A DNA stretch of 35,190 bases from a virus (lineage: Duplodnaviria; Heunggongvirae; Uroviricota; Caudoviricetes), in the IMG/VR virus record IMGVR_UViG_3300034102_002786, positions 82,413 through 117,602 of that record; one strand, 5' to 3'. Positions 3,883 to 34,653 of the stretch are shown here, in pieces (position 1 is the stretch's first letter; each line of letters opens with the position of its first letter). Position numbers and translations under genes: made by a program. The notes under the pieces were generated by a model that worked only from the letters and a program-made list of their open reading frames with translations, searched no databases and had not been told where the DNA came from.

Positions 3883-3895
3883 TTTCGTATATTTG
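3864..3895 (+). promoter_or_regulatory. Bacteroidota-type sigma promoter
   Basis: TTTG 3864-67, 20 bp, TATATTTG 3888-95. Confidence 0.75.
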
Positions 3896-12516: not shown

Positions 12517-12879
12517 ATGATAGAGAATTTAAGTAAGATTAAGGATATGGAATTCAATTTTCCAATTAAGAACGCTAGACAAGCTATGTATAAAGTTGTT
12601 AGTGTAAACGAATTGAGTAAAACAAATTCAACAACAGGTAATTGGGGAGCCGTTATACTTGCCGCAGTTGATAAAACGTTAGGGTATATGGTGCCGGAGC
12701 ATGTTGTATTTACAATTGAGTATGATACTGAAGTTATACCCACATTCAAAATAACAGCAATCACATCCGATAACGAAAGTGCTAAGATTGAAGTAAGTAG
12801 AAGTGGATTGAATACACCTGAAAGATTTTTTGAATCATTAAAATCATTAGCAGAGCATAGTGTAGTATTTAGAGCATAA
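12517..12879 (+). CDS. hypothetical protein
   Basis: ORF track. Confidence 0.75.
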   Translation: MIENLSKIKDMEFNFPIKNARQAMYKVVSVNELSKTNSTTGNWGAVILAAVDKTLGYMVPEHVVFTIEYDTEVIPTFKITAITSDNESAKIEVSRSGLNTPERFFESLKSLAEHSVVFRA

Positions 12880-13351: not shown

Positions 13352-14452
13352 ATGTTATTTGAAACAATTTACAAAGCCACTAAAGGTGGTAAGGTGCAAG
13401 AGTGGACAATTGAAGTAGTAAAGAATAGGTATCGTACTATTTCAGGCCAAACTGACGGTAAGAAAGTAGTTAGTGAATGGACTAGTGTGTTTGGTAAAAA
13501 TGAAGGTAGAGCAAACGAAACTACCGCTAATGAGCAAGCAGTTAAAGAAGCTGAAGCTAAACATAAGTTGAAGTTGGAGCGTGGTTACTTTGAGAATATT
13601 AAGAACATTAATAAGAAACAATACTTTGAACCTATGTTGGCTGGTAAGTGGGAAGATAGAAAAGACAAGATTGAATACCCTATCTATTCACAACCAAAGC
13701 TGGACGGGATACGTTGTATTGTAACCATTGATGGTATGTTCAGTAGGAATGGTAAAGAGATTATATCAGCACCACATATTAGAGAATCGTTGGATAAACT
13801 ATTTCAGCACGAACCTGATTTGATATTGGATGGTGAGTTGTACGCTGATAAGTTCGCTAATGATTTCAACGCTATCGTATCATTGGTTAAGAAAACAAAA
13901 CCAACAGCGGATGACCTGAAACAAAGTGCTAAGAACATTGAGTATCACGTTTATGATATACCTTCTGTTGATGGTACTTTCAAAGAAAGGTGTATTGAGT
14001 TAGATGAATTGAGTTTAGATTTTCCTAAGTGTGTAAAGCAAGTTGAAACGCACATAGTGAAAAACGAAAGTGAAGTGACAGATTGGTATGAAAACTATGT
14101 TGAGAGGGGATATGAAGGTCAGATGTTGAGAACCGATGGAGTTTATGAAAACAAACGTTCAAAGAATTTGTTGAAGCACAAATCATTCATTGACGAAGAA
14201 TATACTATCATTGATATTTGTGAAGGTGAAGGTAATAGGGCAGGAACTGCGGGTTATATGGTATTTGAAACGGCAGAAGGTAAACGATTCAAATCAAATG
14301 TAAAGGGGACATGGGATGAAACTGCTGAAATGCTAAAGAGTAAAAAGAAACTAATAGGTAAGCAAGCAACGATTAAGTATTTCAACTTAACACCCGATGG
14401 TATCCCTCGTTTTCCTTTTGTGATTAATATTGATAGAAATTCATATGAGTAA
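13352..14452 (+). CDS. lig: ATP-dependent DNA ligase
   Basis: QPKLDGIRC (KxDG), LDGELY, YHVYD, EGQMLR, LLKHK, C-terminal OB fold ending GIPRFP. Confidence 0.93.
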   Translation: MLFETIYKATKGGKVQEWTIEVVKNRYRTISGQTDGKKVVSEWTSVFGKNEGRANETTANEQAVKEAEAKHKLKLERGYFENIKNINKKQYFEPMLAGKWEDRKDKIEYPIYSQPKLDGIRCIVTIDGMFSRNGKEIISAPHIRESLDKLFQHEPDLILDGELYADKFANDFNAIVSLVKKTKPTADDLKQSAKNIEYHVYDIPSVDGTFKERCIELDELSLDFPKCVKQVETHIVKNESEVTDWYENYVERGYEGQMLRTDGVYENKRSKNLLKHKSFIDEEYTIIDICEGEGNRAGTAGYMVFETAEGKRFKSNVKGTWDETAEMLKSKKKLIGKQATIKYFNLTPDGIPRFPFVINIDRNSYE

Positions 14453-15137: not shown

Positions 15138-15169
15138 TTTGGTAGATTAAAAAATTATTCGTATATTTG
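15138..15169 (+). promoter_or_regulatory. Bacteroidota-type promoter, likely (near-)leaderless mRNA
   Basis: TTTG 15138-41, 20 bp, TATATTTG 15162-69; ATG only 5 nt downstream. Confidence 0.75.
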
Positions 15170-20974: not shown

Positions 20975-21265
20975 ATGCTGAAGTTTGAAAACCTTAAAAC
21001 AATAGAAGGGCATTTATTTCATAATGGCAGATACCTTATTTACAAATGTGAGGACTCATTGGTAAAAACGTATTTTCACATTAAGGATTTAAAATCACCA
21101 TTTGCACAAATAATTGAATTAAGAAAAGAAGCAACGCCTGTTTATATATTGGAAAATACTTTCAATAAGACGATGGTATATTGTGATTTGGATGTGATTA
21201 AAGATAAAACATTATTTCTTAAAAAATTAGAATTGATAATTGATACATCAGTAACTTGGGAATGA
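20975..21265 (+). CDS. MLTIEN-family paralog 1
   Basis: MLKFENLKTIEG; IELRK; YIL. Confidence 0.75.
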   Translation: MLKFENLKTIEGHLFHNGRYLIYKCEDSLVKTYFHIKDLKSPFAQIIELRKEATPVYILENTFNKTMVYCDLDVIKDKTLFLKKLELIIDTSVTWE

Positions 21266-21606
21266 TTACAATAGAAAACATAAAAAGAATTGAAAAAACG
21301 TATTGGAACTTTGATTCTAAAACTATACAATGTATAAGAGTAGAACAAGTCAATGATGACCTTATATTGAATAGCAATAGTTACACATTTGATTTTGATA
21401 TTGGATTAGGGGATATACCATTAGTCATTTGGTTGGACAGACACAAAAATAAAGATAATGAAGGTTACCGATTTGAAAACAATTTAATAGAAGCTACCAA
21501 TTACGTTGATATAAAGGACTTGACAAATTACAATAGGTTTATTGTTATGTTGCAAGATTATTTAGTATCAATACAAAGTGAAATAAAAAGAAACTTTTTT
21601 AAGTAA
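21262..21606 (+). CDS. MLTIEN-family paralog 2
   Basis: MITIENIKRIEK; YTF; IWLDR; YRF. Confidence 0.8.
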   Translation: MITIENIKRIEKTYWNFDSKTIQCIRVEQVNDDLILNSNSYTFDFDIGLGDIPLVIWLDRHKNKDNEGYRFENNLIEATNYVDIKDLTNYNRFIVMLQDYLVSIQSEIKRNFFK

Positions 21607-21908
21607 TGCTTACAATAGAAAACATAACAAAGGTTTATAAAAAGGACGTTAGCAATTTGTGGCGTATTGGTAAAGTAGAAACAATAAATACCGCATACCT
21701 ATTCACACTAATGAACTCAGTTGGGCAAAGAATACAAATTAATTTAGAACGTAATCCAATAGGTGTACAATATGAATTATGGTGTTGGGATAGCTATCAG
21801 CACAATGCACCACTACCTACTGCAGTTCCTAAGCGTAGAATGTTGGATAAAACTAAATTACAAAACCCAGAACTATTAATACAACAAATAAAAGAATTAG
21901 TACAATGA
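21606..21908 (+). CDS. MLTIEN-family paralog 3
   Basis: MLTIENITKV; WRIG; YLF; INLER; YEL. Confidence 0.85.
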   Translation: MLTIENITKVYKKDVSNLWRIGKVETINTAYLFTLMNSVGQRIQINLERNPIGVQYELWCWDSYQHNAPLPTAVPKRRMLDKTKLQNPELLIQQIKELVQ

Positions 21909-22216
21909 GTAATTTATATATAACGCCGGACAATGGCAGTTTGACAATGAAGGGTAGCGGTAAGGTACAAATCAAAACTTCAATACAAATATACGGAACG
22001 GGTACTAAAATGCCGGTAACGGTTGAGGCTGATTTTACGGACATTCCGCATCACTTACATCAAACTTATTTTCAATCATTGGTAAGTCAATACAATACAT
22101 CGGTCAATGTATATAACAATACAAAGGATGACGAGCCGAAAACAATAGGGGAAAAAAAGAGTGAATGGCGGTTGAATAGAATTGTGGACATAATTAGTAA
22201 AGCAATATCAAAGTAA
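21905..22216 (+). CDS. hypothetical protein, paralog of 10024..10332
   Basis: VEADFTDIPHHLH motif. Confidence 0.75.
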   Translation: MSNLYITPDNGSLTMKGSGKVQIKTSIQIYGTGTKMPVTVEADFTDIPHHLHQTYFQSLVSQYNTSVNVYNNTKDDEPKTIGEKKSEWRLNRIVDIISKAISK

Positions 22217-22217
22217 T

Positions 22218-22559
22218 ATGCTTACAATAGACAACATACAAAATATAGAAGGTAAGGAATTCCAAATGAGCAGTGGACAGAAGTATGTAATTGGTATTGT
22301 ACGGAGTTGGTATGACCATTATAGTTTTGGGGTATTTCCACTAACCGAAATTGGGGTGGCTAGTATAAAGGATGGTATTGTATATAAATTGCATAGAACT
22401 AAAAAGAGTAGAAGGGGATATAAATTAGTTGCACCTAAAATGAGTTGGCAACCTTATGTGAAGCCGGAAAACTTAACCTTAGATAATTTCGTATTAGAAT
22501 TACACATACAAACTGGATTATTAAATGCTAACAATAGAAAACATAAACATACTCAATAG
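22218..22559 (+). CDS. MLTIEN-family paralog 4
   Basis: MLTIDNIQNIEG; YSF; YKLHR; YKL. Confidence 0.85.
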   Translation: MLTIDNIQNIEGKEFQMSSGQKYVIGIVRSWYDHYSFGVFPLTEIGVASIKDGIVYKLHRTKKSRRGYKLVAPKMSWQPYVKPENLTLDNFVLELHIQTGLLNANNRKHKHTQ

Positions 22560-22848
22560 TAAGTTCGCAGGTACGGCCGAATGGCAGATAGGTGAAATGT
22601 TTATAGGTTCACAAAACTATGTATTTGTAATCCACAAACGGGTAGGTTATTGGACAATTGGTGATTCTAAGCATGATGAATTGACGGTACGATTGCATAG
22701 GATAAAGGCAATGGATGGGTATGTAATGGAGACGGGAATAGTAAAACAAAACTATTATGGACGTTCGGTATATAGTATAGATAGAATGAAAACCATAACC
22801 GATTTTACAATATGCTTGGACAATCATATTAAAACTATAATAAGATAA
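22525..22848 (+). CDS. MLTIEN-family paralog 5
   Basis: MLTIENINIL; WQIG; YVF; VRLHR; YVM. Confidence 0.85.
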   Translation: MLTIENINILNSKFAGTAEWQIGEMFIGSQNYVFVIHKRVGYWTIGDSKHDELTVRLHRIKAMDGYVMETGIVKQNYYGRSVYSIDRMKTITDFTICLDNHIKTIIR

Positions 22849-30148: not shown

Positions 30149-30300
30149 AAAACTGGCAATTAATACTAACCGCCACTCTTAGCGGTGTTACTTTTGTGTT
30201 CACACTTACCGGTCCTAACTTACTTACCCCTACGGTTAGTTGGACACTGTGTGTACTATCCCTATATAGTATAGGCTATAAAAATAATTCAGCTAAATAA
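30145..30300 (+). CDS. two-TM micro-protein (51 aa)
   Basis: MKNWQLILTATLSGVTFVFTLTGPNLLTPTVSWTLCVLSLYSIGYKNNSAK; ATGA-type overlap with upstream stop. Confidence 0.6.
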   Translation: MKNWQLILTATLSGVTFVFTLTGPNLLTPTVSWTLCVLSLYSIGYKNNSAK

Positions 30301-30705
30301 AATACTCTTAGTATATACCCATGTAACATAGACCCGATGTGGGTTGCATGGCATGGGTGATACATATTGATACATACCTATTCCTATGCAACCGTTGGTA
30401 GCAGTGGGTTGCATGAGACGGGACGGGGGGGACTGAATTTCTTGTGACTGAGAAAATAAAAGTTTGGCATGACCCACGCCTATGCCGTTTCCGCCCCGAG
30501 CCCGGTTTTTTCCCGTATAGGATTTTTATAGGGTAAGGTAGTACCTAGCCTGCCTTAATAGGGTGGACCTCTATCAATTTAGCTATTTCCCTTTTAGGAT
30601 GGATTAGACCCCCTTATTTTTGATGGTTTCGGTATGGGGTGTATATTGGGGTGGTTTTATGGTAAAGCTCGGGAAATCACAGTAAAACCATATAATATGT
30701 ATCTC

Positions 30706-30767
30706 TTTAATAATCAATAGGTTAGCTCGGGTTTAGAGCGGGCCCGGCTAACGTGTTGATTATCAAT
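30706..30767. repeat. motif cluster 5: inverted pair
   Basis: TTTAATAATCAATAGGTTAGC (30706-26) and GCTAACGTGTTGATTATCAAT (30747-67); same 20-bp inner spacing as cluster 1. Confidence 0.9.
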
Positions 30768-30788
30768 GAGGAATTTTTGGGGTTTTTC

Positions 30789-30832
30789 ATTGCTATATGG
30801 GTATTTTTTCGTATCTTTGGTATGTTAATAAA
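30789..30832 (+). promoter_or_regulatory. Bacteroidota-type promoter
   Basis: ATTG 30789-92, 19 bp, TATCTTTG 30812-19, GTATGTTAATAAA. Confidence 0.7.
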
Positions 30833-30858: not shown

Positions 30859-31116
30859 ATGAAAAGTTTTAAAGTTTCAGATGGTAAGGTAATGGTAGAT
30901 GGTGTCCTTTATGGTACTACTCCTATTAATGATGTAAAGGTTAGGGGTAAGGTAGGTACTATCCATTCTATCAACATTGAAGGTAGAGGTCAGTTCTTCC
31001 CTATTAGTGGGTTATTCAACGATGGTTCTATAAAGGTTGTTGATTCTACTACTGATGTATTGGATGTGGATGTAAAAGTAGAAAAGAAGAAAAGGGCTAA
31101 AAAGAGTTCTAAGTAA
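30859..31116 (+). CDS. hypothetical protein with basic tail
   Basis: ORF track. Confidence 0.8.
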   Translation: MKSFKVSDGKVMVDGVLYGTTPINDVKVRGKVGTIHSINIEGRGQFFPISGLFNDGSIKVVDSTTDVLDVDVKVEKKKRAKKSSK

Positions 31117-31161: not shown

Positions 31162-31398
31162 ATGTATAACAATTACAATGATGTCCAAGCGTATGAGGCT
31201 TTGGAGAACGAAAGATTACAAACGGCATTAGACCCGAAATACCAACAATGGGTAAAGGAACTTAACATTTCTCAATCGTATGTAGAGCCCGATGGGTTTA
31301 TTAGGGCTAAGCAATTAAATGAGCAATACGACTTTTCAAACAATAGTTCTAAATCACCAATTCTTAACTTTTTAAAGATTAAAGGTATATGGTCTTAA
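31162..31398 (+). CDS. hypothetical protein
   Basis: ORF track. Confidence 0.75.
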   Translation: MYNNYNDVQAYEALENERLQTALDPKYQQWVKELNISQSYVEPDGFIRAKQLNEQYDFSNNSSKSPILNFLKIKGIWS

Positions 31399-31748
31399 AC
31401 ATTAGTGGTATCAATAAACTTACCGGTCACATATTCCATAATCGGACTATCCAAAAGGTTTCATTAGCAGCAAGATATGGTGTGGATTCATCTTCGTATG
31501 TATTTTATTTTGCCGAAATACCTTATTACAAAAATGACCCGAATGGAATGAAACGATGGGAAGATGAATTTGAGATTCACCTATACCGCCGCCCCAAACA
31601 TGGTAAGTACGAATTGTTTTGGATGGGATTGCATGGTGTGACTTGTATGGAATTGGGTTGGAAAGATATTCAAAACTTTTCTACCTTTATTTCATCGTTA
31701 GGTATGGTGGTTGAAAGAGGTAAAAGGTATTGGACAGAAAATAGATAA
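31389..31748 (+). CDS. MLTIEN-family paralog 6
   Basis: MVLNISGINKLTGHIFHN; YVF; IHLYR; YEL. Confidence 0.75.
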   Translation: MVLNISGINKLTGHIFHNRTIQKVSLAARYGVDSSSYVFYFAEIPYYKNDPNGMKRWEDEFEIHLYRRPKHGKYELFWMGLHGVTCMELGWKDIQNFSTFISSLGMVVERGKRYWTENR

Positions 31749-31751
31749 GAT

Positions 31752-31859
31752 ATGATAAAGTATATAAAACAATATTGGAACGCATTAGGTGATAGTGAAA
31801 AGTTAATGGTAATCTATTTGGTTGCTATGGCTATCCTTATTCTTATCGCCACAAATTAA
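31752..31859 (+). CDS. single-TM micro-protein (35 aa)
   Basis: MIKYIKQYWNALGDSEKLMVIYLVAMAILILIATN. Confidence 0.6.
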   Translation: MIKYIKQYWNALGDSEKLMVIYLVAMAILILIATN

Positions 31860-31863
31860 TCCT

Positions 31864-32178
31864 ATGTTAAAGATTAAAAACCCTGAAAGGTTGAATATTA
31901 CAACAAAAGCTCTAACCGCTGATATACATTGTGAAATTGTATATCAAAGAGAAAATGCAGCTGAATACCTATTTCGTATTCTAAAGGATGGTGTATTGGA
32001 TGCTAAGATGACTATATCAAAAGATTGGAATGTAGGCGATACCGTTGTTGTACGATTTTGTGATAAGGATAATCATTGGATTCATTCTACTTACGAATTG
32101 GATTATGAAATGGTTAGTAATCGTAGTAAATTTATTTTTTGGATTACTGAAAGATTCCTTGATGATTATAAACAATAA
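31864..32178 (+). CDS. MLTIEN-family paralog 7 (divergent)
   Basis: MLKIKNPERL; YLF; MTISK. Confidence 0.7.
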   Translation: MLKIKNPERLNITTKALTADIHCEIVYQRENAAEYLFRILKDGVLDAKMTISKDWNVGDTVVVRFCDKDNHWIHSTYELDYEMVSNRSKFIFWITERFLDDYKQ

Positions 32179-32179
32179 T

Positions 32180-32479
32180 ATGCTAACCATAGAGAACTTA
32201 GATAAGATTACCAATTGCATTGGATTCAATGTGTGGAATGTTACTTATGATACTCATTATTCATTCTTTGTTGATGTGGGTGATAGCAAAGCAATAGAAG
32301 TTACACTAGCCCGTCATAAACCAAAATTACAAAATGGTAAACCACATCCACATAGTGATGAATATCTTTTACAATGTCACCATATCAGTTGGAAACACTA
32401 TTGGGTAACAAAGAATGATATAAGGGATATATGGGAGATGAGCAGATTAATTGAATCATTTATAAACGAAGTTAAGTAA
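32180..32479 (+). CDS. MLTIEN-family paralog 8
   Basis: MLTIENLDKI; YSF; VTLAR; YLL. Confidence 0.85.
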   Translation: MLTIENLDKITNCIGFNVWNVTYDTHYSFFVDVGDSKAIEVTLARHKPKLQNGKPHPHSDEYLLQCHHISWKHYWVTKNDIRDIWEMSRLIESFINEVK

Positions 32480-32787
32480 TGCTAATAATAGATAACATAG
32501 AGAAGATTAAACAATATCCATTCAACGTACATTGGAGATGCGATTCGGTTAGAGAAACGGATACCTTTTATCATTTCGTTGTTGAACGCTTGAATATAGA
32601 AGGTAAGATATGTGATGTTAGAAGGATAACCCTATCGAGAGTTGATATACCAAATATGGATGAGAATGAATTATGCTACGAATTATATTTGGATGATAGG
32701 AAGTTGAATCAACTTGTCACAACTTCATACTTAAAAAGTATAAACAACTTAGTAAATAAATTTACGGAAATATTACGGAGCTTATAA
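32479..32787 (+). CDS. MLTIEN-family paralog 9
   Basis: MLIIDNIEKI; WRC; ETDTFYHF; ITLSR; YEL. Confidence 0.85.
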   Translation: MLIIDNIEKIKQYPFNVHWRCDSVRETDTFYHFVVERLNIEGKICDVRRITLSRVDIPNMDENELCYELYLDDRKLNQLVTTSYLKSINNLVNKFTEILRSL

Positions 32788-32791
32788 TAAT

Positions 32792-33100
32792 ATGCTAAAG
32801 ATAGAGAACTATAAGAAATTAGTAGGATTAAAGTTTGGCGATTGGACTTGTGGACTAGTTGTAGAGCACGAAAAGATTTATCGTTTCTCGTTCCATAATG
32901 GGAATTCATCCTCTGCATCATATGGGGATACCTATTGGATAGAATTAGATAGAACATCCTACATAGATGCGGACGGTGATGAAGTCTACCCCTTAAACCA
33001 CCCGAATAAAAAACTAATAACAATAATATCAAAACAATATGTTAAGAAGATGGACAAGGTATCCACATTCTTCAACCAAATAATCAGAGATTATGCATGA
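32792..33100 (+). CDS. MLTIEN-family paralog 10
   Basis: MLKIENYKKLVG; FGDWTC; YRF; IELDR; YPL. Confidence 0.85.
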   Translation: MLKIENYKKLVGLKFGDWTCGLVVEHEKIYRFSFHNGNSSSASYGDTYWIELDRTSYIDADGDEVYPLNHPNKKLITIISKQYVKKMDKVSTFFNQIIRDYA

Positions 33101-33422
33101 CGTAGAAAAATATCTACATATAACCAACCATAAAAGAATGGAAGGTGAAGAATTCTACGATGGAAGATTCGTATGTACTACCACAGTAGAGACAGATACA
33201 AATTATCGTTTCCAATTCTGTGACCACAATTGGCCATCTCTCCGATATATATGGGTGGAAGTGAGCCGTTTTGGGGAATGGGACTCAAAAGATAGTAGAT
33301 GGGTATATAGATTAAACTACCCACAATCACCCACACATATCGTTTCTGCCCAATTCCTTTCGGATTTCCATAATGCGATTAAGACGATGGGAACGGCATT
33401 AAAATATTCAATAGATAAGTAA
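33093..33422 (+). CDS. MLTIEN-family paralog 11
   Basis: LHITNHKRMEG; ETDTNYRF; VEVSR; YRL. Confidence 0.8.
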   Translation: MHDVEKYLHITNHKRMEGEEFYDGRFVCTTTVETDTNYRFQFCDHNWPSLRYIWVEVSRFGEWDSKDSRWVYRLNYPQSPTHIVSAQFLSDFHNAIKTMGTALKYSIDK

Positions 33423-33901
33423 TGAGTATAATGCGAACAAAGGGAAACGGAAAGATAGTGATTACATCCACTCCAAAAGGTGGTGGCTGGGCTTCTGCTA
33501 TGGGCTGGGCGGCTAAGTATTATCAACAAAATCAAACCCAAAAAAATCCTAACTTCGACACGAATAGGAAGTTGGTGATACAAAACTATGCAAAGGATTT
33601 GGGTAGTGGTGTATTTTGGGGATGGGATGTTATCGCTGCTGATGAAACCGATGAAAATTATTTATTCCAATTAAGAAACCGAGAGAATGGTTCATTGAGG
33701 GTTTACATCACATTGGGTAGAGAATTACAAGTTTCCGATTTAGAGAACAACCTATATCAGATGTATCAATGTTATATACATGATGATTTAGCACAATGGG
33801 ATAAGAGGTTTTGGTTGGATGCTAAGGATATTAATCATAAAACCTTTTGGGGAATGATAGAAAAAATTGTGGATGGTTATCATCCATTATTACCATTTTA
33901 A
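33422..33901 (+). CDS. MLTIEN-family paralog 12 with ~48-aa N-terminal extension
   Basis: LVIQNYAKDLG; GWDV; ETDENYLF; ITLGR; YQM. Confidence 0.75.
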   Translation: MSIMRTKGNGKIVITSTPKGGGWASAMGWAAKYYQQNQTQKNPNFDTNRKLVIQNYAKDLGSGVFWGWDVIAADETDENYLFQLRNRENGSLRVYITLGRELQVSDLENNLYQMYQCYIHDDLAQWDKRFWLDAKDINHKTFWGMIEKIVDGYHPLLPF

Positions 33902-33903
33902 TT

Positions 33904-34215
33904 ATGCTAACAATAGAGAATTTTAAAAAAATAAAAAACCAATGGTTCGGTGATTGGCAGATTGGTAAAGGTATTATGGAAGAAAAAACCTATTATGCTT
34001 TACAATCACAACACTCAAGTGGAAAACGTAGTGTAACGATAGTTATACTAAGAGAGCCTAAGATGGATGAGAATTTCGAAAAGTATTATTCAATATCTCT
34101 GATAGATGATAATAAAGGTAGTTCATCTATAATAGAAGATATTATATACCATACTGTATTAGAAGATATGGAATTATTTGGAGAATCATTAGTACATTAT
34201 TTAAATACAATATAG
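33904..34215 (+). CDS. MLTIEN-family paralog 13
   Basis: MLTIENFKKIKNQWFGDWQIG; IVILR; YSI. Confidence 0.85.
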   Translation: MLTIENFKKIKNQWFGDWQIGKGIMEEKTYYALQSQHSSGKRSVTIVILREPKMDENFEKYYSISLIDDNKGSSSIIEDIIYHTVLEDMELFGESLVHYLNTI

Positions 34216-34218
34216 ATT

Positions 34219-34653
34219 ATGAAAAAAGAAAAAGCAATTATAGTTAGCGGATACTTTAATCCCCTACACAAAGGTCACTTAGATTTATTTAAAAAAGGTA
34301 AACAAATGGGTGATAAACTTTGGGTAATTGTTAATTCAGATTTCCAAAGAGAATTAAAAGGTTCATTGGAATTTATGTCTGATTCTGAAAGATTAGAAAT
34401 AGTTAAGGCTATTAGATATGTTGATTATGCATTAATATCATCCGATAGGGATAGAACTCAATGCTATACCTTACAACAGTTTCACAAAATGTTTGGAGAT
34501 AGATACGATTTAGTATTTGCAAATGGTGGTGACCAGAACAATGAAACAATACCAGAAAGAGAAGTTTGTGAGAGATTGGGTATTCAATTAATCGATGGAT
34601 TGGGTGATAAGATACAAAGTAGTAGTTGGTTACTAAAATCAAACATTATTTAA
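34219..34653 (+). CDS. HIGH-motif cytidylyl/adenylyltransferase (TagD/RfaE-II-like)
   Basis: VSGYFNPLHKGH, WVIVNSD, FANGGDQ, IQSSS. Confidence 0.9.
   Translation: MKKEKAIIVSGYFNPLHKGHLDLFKKGKQMGDKLWVIVNSDFQRELKGSLEFMSDSERLEIVKAIRYVDYALISSDRDRTQCYTLQQFHKMFGDRYDLVFANGGDQNNETIPEREVCERLGIQLIDGLGDKIQSSSWLLKSNII

Follow-up and report, generated by a model that had tools for sequence, protein, structure and literature searches.

The 35,190-nucleotide (nt) stretch of tailed-phage (Caudoviricetes) DNA analyzed here (the window), which is the last 35 kb of the 117.6-kb IMG/VR record IMGVR_UViG_3300034102_002786 (completeness of 53% by CheckV), encodes two arrays of small paralogous proteins, the MLTIEN family. 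What is new is an unannotated protein family with a predicted fold, its two conserved arrays, and the gain or loss of whole genes as cassettes at a box that spans the start codon. Its 13 open reading frames (ORFs) all lie on the + strand, with A1 to A5 in array A (20975 to 22848) and B1 to B8 in array B (31389 to 34215). From sequence comparisons and structural models, we tentatively favor, at somewhat less than even confidence, the reading that the paralogs would form a repertoire of specialized small cytoplasmic binding modules for host takeover or counter-defence. Three relatives served for comparison, namely, G001 (G1; complete, 274 kb; region L008), G002 (G2; region L009), and G003 (G3; region L010). 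The array genes are as follows.

20975 to 21265, + strand: A1, 96 amino acids (aa), divergent; E = 1.5 × 10−7 with an external profile; leave-one-out score not above those of shuffles
21262 to 21606, + strand: A2, 114 aa; 21-nt box at its start with 2 mismatches; profile supported
21606 to 21908, + strand: A3, 100 aa; leave-one-out score of 32.3 bits; 21-nt box with 1 mismatch
21905 to 22216, + strand: conserved nonmember between A3 and A4, 103 aa; hhalign probability of 0.4%
22218 to 22559, + strand: A4, 113 aa; 21-nt box with 2 mismatches; G3 ortholog 94% identical
22525 to 22848, + strand: A5, 107 aa; exact 21-nt box ATGCTAACAATAGAAAACATA; 35-nt overlap with A4
31389 to 31748, + strand: B1, 119 aa; opens array B; probable divergent member
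31864 to 32178, + strand: B2, 104 aa; possible degenerate member; motifs in order
32180 to 32479, + strand: B3, 99 aa; 21-nt box with 3 mismatches
32479 to 32787, + strand: B4, 102 aa; fold modeled; 21-nt box with 2 mismatches
32792 to 33100, + strand: B5, 102 aa; closest paralog of B6 and sister to the B6 orthogroup in the tree
33093 to 33422, + strand: B6, 109 aa; motif from residue 7; profile supported
33422 to 33901, + strand: B7, 159 aa; N-terminal extension of ~47 aa; family domain from ~33563
33904 to 34215, + strand: B8, 103 aa; closes array B; profile supported

An earlier note on this DNA, made from the sequence alone, had grouped these ORFs into a 13-member family with shared motifs, low identity, and mostly stop/start-coupled genes. 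All 13 are present on the + strand, and 11 of the 12 gene junctions fall within −35 to +4 nt, the sole exception being the 115-nt gap between B1 and B2. The motifs M-L-x-I-x-N, aromatic-x-[IV], Y-x-F, [IV]-x-[LI]-x-R, and Y-x-L occur in this order, over ~100 aa, in 13 of 13 ORFs. In an alignment of the 13, L2, I4, N6, Y31, and F33 are at least 90% conserved at a mean column identity of 19%, and the same columns are the most informative in an outside profile of 123 metagenomic cluster representatives. The isoelectric points of the 13 range from 4.9 to 9.7. The paralogs are <30% identical. As pairwise BLAST comparisons are mostly weak (the best pair, B5/B6, gives E = 8 × 10−10), profiles were used. 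In leave-one-out searches with hidden Markov models, 10 of the 13 beat all 300 shuffles of themselves, whereas A1, B1, and B2 failed; with the 123-sequence profile, the 13 ORFs take the first 13 places among the 196 six-frame segments of the window, with 11 members at E ≤ 1.5 × 10−7, B1 at 8.7 × 10−5, and B2 at 0.004, a value matched by an unrelated-looking ORF at 12517 to 12879. Profile-profile comparison by hhalign with a 124-sequence family alignment gave B1 a probability of 87% (E = 3.8 × 10−6) with every motif aligned, B2 15% over its N-terminal third only, and a control ORF 0.4%. Orthologs of B1 open array B in the three relatives and score up to 4 × 10−8. Membership is firm for 11 ORFs, probable for B1, and possible for B2; the mutual recovery by profiles that the earlier note had set as a check likewise holds for 11 ORFs with the outside profile (10 in the leave-one-out searches) and for B1 by hhalign, and it is doubtful for B2. 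No additional copies were found in the 117.6-kb record.

The ORF at 12517 to 12879 was considered as a 14th member, but its membership is not supported, the alignment covering just 13 N-terminal residues. It encodes 120 aa, begins MIENLSKIKDMEF, and has only the N-terminal motif in common with the family; a very remote relative and a start-box chimera are both conceivable.

A 10-member profile recovered 336 proteins at E ≤ 0.01 among 90%-identity clusters and 132 representatives of 50%-identity clusters at E ≤ 10−3 in a library that was read whole; 70 close homologs of A5 were among the proteins collected. All 132 representatives are 48 to 158 aa long, and thus there are no fusions to other domains: the members are soluble proteins of ~100 aa without another domain. 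The sole name given to homologs is "hypothetical protein." The statement of the earlier note that no known domain is recognizable was borne out, since Pfam-A, PHROGs v4, NCBIfam 20, and PADLOC 2.0 contained no family matched by more than one member (best E values of 0.0006 to 0.02, to unrelated families), and the top of a PDB sequence-profile search, a LAGLIDADG-like protein, was discarded at the chance level (E = 0.34). Searches with tblastn against 50,697 phage records returned nothing genuine, and B5 was without any match. The rows labeled "RegB endoribonuclease" obtained with B6 in cultured phages (E = 0.07) match the strand opposite regB and are spurious, and a match of A3 to P-SSM2 (E = 2) lies inside a 1,148-aa ORF; the family profile had no match on P-SSM2 or on the 595-kb record LR756511.1. 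Among 185,579 prokaryote genomes, a scan for close relatives of A5 recovered none.

Two of the 13 members were modeled with AlphaFold (AF2), B4 from the 10-paralog alignment and B7 from a separate alignment of 39 close homologs. Both models predict an alpha/beta fold in two layers, which begins with a short N-terminal segment and a short helix, continues as an antiparallel meander sheet of five strands, and ends in a long C-terminal helix. In the B4 model (mean predicted local distance difference test score [pLDDT], 85.6; predicted template modeling score, 0.76) the elements are H7-12, E19-26, E30-38, E44-55, E66-73, E76-83, and H88-101, and in the B7 model residues 56 to 153 form a helix, five strands, and a helix, with residues 1 to 42 at a pLDDT of <50. 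The shared beta-rich scaffold that had been proposed is thus seen, with identical element order, in two models made from separate alignments, and both match one viral Atlas cluster (template modeling [TM] scores of 0.77 and 0.65).

Conservation maps onto this fold in a regular manner. The profile information peaks at the N-terminal L, I, and N and then, on strands 1 to 4 in turn, at the aromatic residue, Y-x-F, I-x-L-x-R, and Y-x-L (in B4 numbering, L2, I4, N6, W19, Y31, F33, I50, L52, R54, Y67, and L69), and relative entropy alternates along the strands, being high at profile positions 44/46, 58/60/62, and 73/75 and near zero at their neighbors. Because of this alternation, one face of the sheet appears to be fixed and the other free, in agreement with the variable surfaces suggested earlier, and the fixed face should pack under the helices. 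In the four orthogroups with sufficient sequences, most positions are well kept inside each group (0.6 to 0.9), and conservation is 0.7 to 0.9 at positions whose consensus residue differs from group to group.

The same residues allow for a different and, in our estimate, unlikely reading, in which N6, Y31, R54, and Y67, together with W19, form one pocket or docking site, all paralogs bind one kind of small molecule (e.g., a nucleotide signal, as do phage sponge proteins) or one phage or host protein, and the variable surface is secondary. These five positions are the most informative in the profile (2.8 to 3.7 bits) and are kept in 4 of 4 orthogroups tested, and the strand register of the models would place Y31, R54, and Y67 at the same end of adjacent strands. 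However, they have their strand phase in common with the core residues F33, I50, L52, and L69, which is consistent with their clamping the N-terminal segment from a buried position; 13 to 23 old, distinct paralogs per genome are hard to explain by one ligand; and there is no match to a known sponge or nucleotide-binding family.

Structural comparisons place the fold among common two-layer proteins. Foldseek searches of PDB and BFVD gave no match at E ≤ 10−3, and Atlas feature searches returned no cluster with a Pfam family. An Atlas row for the "TumE toxin-antitoxin family" (TM score of 0.54 to the B4 model) was set aside, as it was not repeated by the second model. An exhaustive structural aligner run against solved structures gave best Z scores of 7.1, 6.4, and 7.7, with neighbors including CapZ alpha, RWD and UBC-like domains, Mediator subunits, frataxin, type III secretion chaperones, the AcrIF24 N-domain, and two immunity proteins. 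Since models that lack a true match typically score Z < 8 by the stated background of this aligner, these neighbors are best viewed, on the models, as reflecting a common two-layer arrangement and not membership of those families. The closest likeness is to CapZ alpha (Z = 7.7; 91 residues aligned; root mean square deviation [rmsd], 3.7) and to the RWD domains of Ctf19-Mcm21 (Z = 6.7; 75 aligned; rmsd, 2.5); RWD, E2, and Mediator domains recur at Z = 5 to 7.1 in two independent models, below the background level of 8. The central sheet of CapZ and the RWD/UBC-like domains resemble the MLTIEN models in having an antiparallel meander sheet that is preceded by one helix and followed by another, the latter packed on one face. 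They are protein-protein interaction scaffolds, with 4 to 16% identity to the models and no catalytic or motif residues in common with them.

A weak likeness to TriTu (Z = 5.0), Rv3902c (Z = 5.1 to 5.2), and the AcrIF24 N-domain (Z = 6.1 over 67 residues) touches on an immunity array, in which the paralogs would be antidotes, each neutralizing its own toxin (an effector of host abortive infection or of a toxin-antitoxin system, or a toxin of a competing element). Among phage anti-defence proteins, the AcrIF24 N-domain is the only likeness seen. The precedent is the SUKH/Imm poly-immunity loci (PMC3482391; Zhang, Iyer, and Aravind), which likewise consist of small, diverged alpha+beta paralogs in tandem whose surfaces differ around a constant hydrophobic core and whose copy number varies between relatives. 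We nevertheless consider this reading improbable: the Z scores are at noise level, there is no match to a Pfam immunity family, the order of helix, five strands, and helix is not matched to SUKH, and no toxin gene is seen beside the arrays, whose neighbors are ligase, methyltransferase, Cpn10, cytidylyltransferase, and small unknown ORFs. Further, the family occurs in lytic-type T4-like phages, with none found in bacterial genomes in the close-relative scan described above.

The copy number of the family is 13 in the window, 19 in G001, 23 in G002, and 13 in G003. Both G001 and G002 have two arrays ~9 kb apart, and G003 has the same two and two upstream copies; in more distant phages the copies are dispersed and number just one or two. 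A maximum-likelihood tree built on 69 domains, with good support for 29 of 63 inner branches, recovered cross-phage orthogroups and no clustering by phage, with 14 label changes for 14 window rows; A1, for instance, is placed with G1.05/G2.06. B2 has no ortholog in the three relatives and B5 none in the relatives, and B5 alone seems to have branched off more recently, from the B6 type. There are no near-identical duplicates among the paralogs of the window, in which B5/B6 is the closest pair. Window members are 44 to 71% identical in amino acid sequence to their G1 orthologs (neighboring genes, 41 to 91%), and five members lack a G1 ortholog. The ratio of nonsynonymous to synonymous substitution rates (dN/dS) between G1 and G2 has a median of 0.19 for 19 members versus 0.10 for 21 neighboring genes, and it is well below 1 in 18 of the 19 member pairs, with one pair at 1.19. 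This speaks against the diversifying selection that the earlier note had implied. These comparisons show that the genes are real and under purifying selection and that the paralog types predate the split of these phages. Given the one or two dispersed copies of distant phages, the cross-phage orthogroups, and the low dN/dS, the expansion is clade specific, old, and maintained and not a recent amplification. That the ORFs are chance frames or decaying duplicates, as their very low pairwise identity and the barely recognizable B2 might be taken to mean, is scarcely credible in view of these dN/dS values, the confident predicted folds, and the hundreds of metagenomic homologs of equal length.

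Stop/start coupling at all but one junction, with gene order and orthogroups common to several phages, would also fit an assembly in which the gene products are hetero-oligomer subunits or accessory proteins of the virion or of its assembly (chaperone-like), and type III secretion chaperones, RWD domains, and capping-protein scaffolds are indeed among the structural neighbors (Z = 5 to 7.7). We give little credence to this explanation, as an obligate complex should be intolerant of copy numbers of 13, 19, and 23 and of single cassettes that vary between near-identical phages. Distant phages moreover carry only their one or two dispersed copies, and in the complete relative ~180 kb separates the arrays from the capsid gene.

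A second conserved feature is found in the nucleotide sequence. The 21-mer ATGCTAACAATAGAAAACATA occurs in six copies at ≤3 mismatches (0.01 expected), at family start codons only, and is found neither elsewhere nor antisense in the 117.6-kb record. Relative to the usage of the window, the motif codons are skewed, with Leu as CTN in 8 of 9 (background, 0.30; P = 4 × 10−4), Ile as ATA in 8 of 9 (0.38; P = 0.003), Asn as AAC in 9 of 10 (0.35; P = 5 × 10−4), and the second Ile as ATA in 5 of 5 (P = 0.008); codons 2 to 7 of other genes lack this bias. In distant phages whose members are dispersed, L-T-I-x-N is retained but encoded by other codons. The motif is therefore an old constraint on the protein, and the nucleotide box is peculiar to the clade that bears the arrays.

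The box coincides with a junction between cassettes. G1 lacks two cassettes of G2 (773 bp), precisely in register: its sequence corresponds to the left flank of G2.14 through the 21-mer and to G2.16 from the 21-mer onward, with the switch point inside the identical 21-mer. Two more whole-cassette differences end at gene starts, without a clean box junction. At least one cassette loss or gain has hence arisen via unequal recombination, by a single clean crossover, inside a box that is shared beyond amino acid need. The gene accordion invoked by the earlier note holds, accordingly, insofar as copy number varies (13, 19, 23, and 13) and one insertion/deletion junction lies inside the box; the ancient orthogroups and the lack of near-identical copies stand against it, the pattern being one of old cassettes slowly gained and lost. 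Poxvirus K3L-type accordions are similar in that copy number changes via unequal recombination of tandem units, but they yield near-identical recent copies under strong selection, whereas the MLTIEN paralogs are <30% identical, older than the phage lineages, and under purifying selection. As a separate observation, G1 has at the site of G2.04 an ORF of ~50 aa starting MNVTIDDIKGIE (L008, reverse strand, ~2710 to 2870 as oriented), i.e., a family-like start followed by unrelated sequence, as start-box recombination might yield.

A more far-reaching proposal, which we regard as doubtful, is that of a cassette system, in which a new fold would act as the scaffold for many binders with a common 21-nt start, in-register recombination would add, drop, or swap whole genes without broken proteins, coinfecting phages would thereby trade counter-defence or host-takeover repertoires, and the box would be kept by selection for exchange and not only by descent. 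More doubtful still is a signal in the nucleic acid itself, with the box read on mRNA by an RNA-binding regulator, a nuclease, or the initiating ribosome, thereby coregulating the members, and recombination as a by-product. The synonymous codons fixed at the box are in its favor, as is the composition of the box, which is A rich and U poor at its free positions and overlaps the start codon. On the other hand, the limitation of the box to the array-bearing clade is what concerted evolution would give, no antisense copy exists in the record, and a search of G000 and G001 for RegA (PF01818), made without a positive control, was empty.

Returning to the binding modules that we tentatively favor, the fixed, helix-packed face would be the common scaffold, and the opposite sheet face and loops would vary among paralogs and be kept among orthologs. 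Such a surface suggests that each paralog is most likely a specialized binding module with its own fixed partner. The members would jointly constitute a small cytoplasmic binder repertoire to take over or disarm the host, its size tuned by cassette recombination. Several points weigh against this interpretation. Purifying selection and stable orthogroups suit housekeeping-type phage functions equally; the generic structural neighbors (best Z of 7.7) leave the predicted fold without a functional lead; and the face of each residue was deduced from the strand periodicity of the models. The test of conservation within orthogroups is partly circular because these are defined by similarity, a variable exposed face is expected in any small two-layer protein and is no proof of binding, and the conserved polar N/Y/R/Y set could mark a shared site instead of a structural clamp.

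The arrays also have a putative transcription context, which includes the following box.

30808 to 30819, + strand: promoter-like −7 box TTCGTATCTTTG, heading the operon that contains array B

This box lies ~40 nt before an 85-aa gene (30859 to 31116) that opens the array B operon. Exact copies of TTCGTATNTTTG are found on the + strand at 3884, 15158, 24692, 27163, 27252, and 30808, of which that at 15158 is the closest upstream of array A. The −7 box has 13 matches at ≤1 mismatch (1.7 expected), and the Bacteroidota-type pattern TTTG-N17-23-TAnnTTTG has 11 (2.8 expected). The boxes would fit Bacteroidota-type promoters that split the window into transcription units; no strong terminators are predicted between the −7 boxes and the arrays. 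Just upstream of the box at 30808, the region 30300 to 30770 is free of ORFs and G+C rich for the genome, with an RNA fold z score of −3.2 (0 of 100 shuffles as good) and 74% identity over ~230 nt in G003, along with shorter matches in G001 and G002. It has no Rfam match and may be a structured RNA or a protein-binding region.

Several features of individual genes deserve mention. The leader of B7 (33422 to 33562; ~47 aa) is predicted to be disordered, has conserved MRTKG and YYQQNQTQKNPNFD stretches, is retained in dozens of B7 orthologs, and also precedes the B8-like paralog P0123; it could represent a short linear motif of its own. One paralog type has long forms (L009, 16899 to 17570; L010, 15718 to 16320) with a ~100-aa C-terminal extension ending in RAKKAAF or RAKKAAY; the ~100-aa extensions of G2.20 and G3.10 contain no second domain copy. 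The window is without a long form, and its 85-aa gene at 30859 to 31116 ends in KKKRAKKSSK. The nonmember gene at 21905 to 22216 is 89% identical to its G1 and G2 counterparts, above the conservation of the array members, keeps a fixed position within array A, and has no Pfam match over the cutoff and no PHROG match.

The window has a G+C content of ~33%, with long ORFs almost all on the + strand. Its recognizable genes are an ATP-dependent DNA ligase (13352 to 14452), an FkbM-type methyltransferase, a family 2 glycosyltransferase, a metallophosphoesterase, a SnoaL-like gene, and the following gene.

34219 to 34653: cytidylyltransferase-like gene, directly after B8

Ligase, Cpn10, a cyclophilin-type isomerase, and Kyano_Gp96 occur in similar order on related contigs, and the capsid gene of G001 is a T4-type Gp23 (PF07068; E = 8 × 10−75). 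The family occurs in large T4-type phages known from metagenomes alone. Amino acid divergence between G001 and G002 is mosaic, with adjoining genes, family and nonfamily alike, going from 100% down to 44 to 49% identity, which suggests frequent replacement of single genes through recombination.

Small early gene clusters of T4 (the hyperplastic regions and the internal proteins IPI to IPIII) offer a further comparison, being likewise co-oriented small nonstructural genes of a T4-type phage behind host-type promoter-like boxes. The T4 small early genes are mostly unrelated to each other, whereas here one family fills two arrays. The T4 internal proteins have a capsid-targeting leader that ends in an (L/I)-x-E prohead protease site. 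By sequence reading, M-L-T-I-E-N does not conform to this tag, having T and not L/I two positions before E, and the motif of B6 and B7 lies away from the N terminus, within the folded domain. Bacillus phage G, with ~35 zinc-ribbon copies, is an example of lineage-specific expansion in jumbo phages (PMC7824862); it too is a large phage multiplying one small domain, but of another fold and family, and the MLTIEN family is not mentioned in that review.

Small genes of unknown role take up much of the genome of large phages, and families kept in 13 to 23 distinct, selected copies are good places to search for new modes of host handling. The profile, fold model, member list, and orthogroups provide a defined resource for cloning and screening, and the start-codon box as a crossover point is a testable mechanism by which array size might change without gene damage. 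If the members do bind different host proteins, the fold would be a compact natural scaffold; if they instead share one ligand, they may represent a new sponge-type family.

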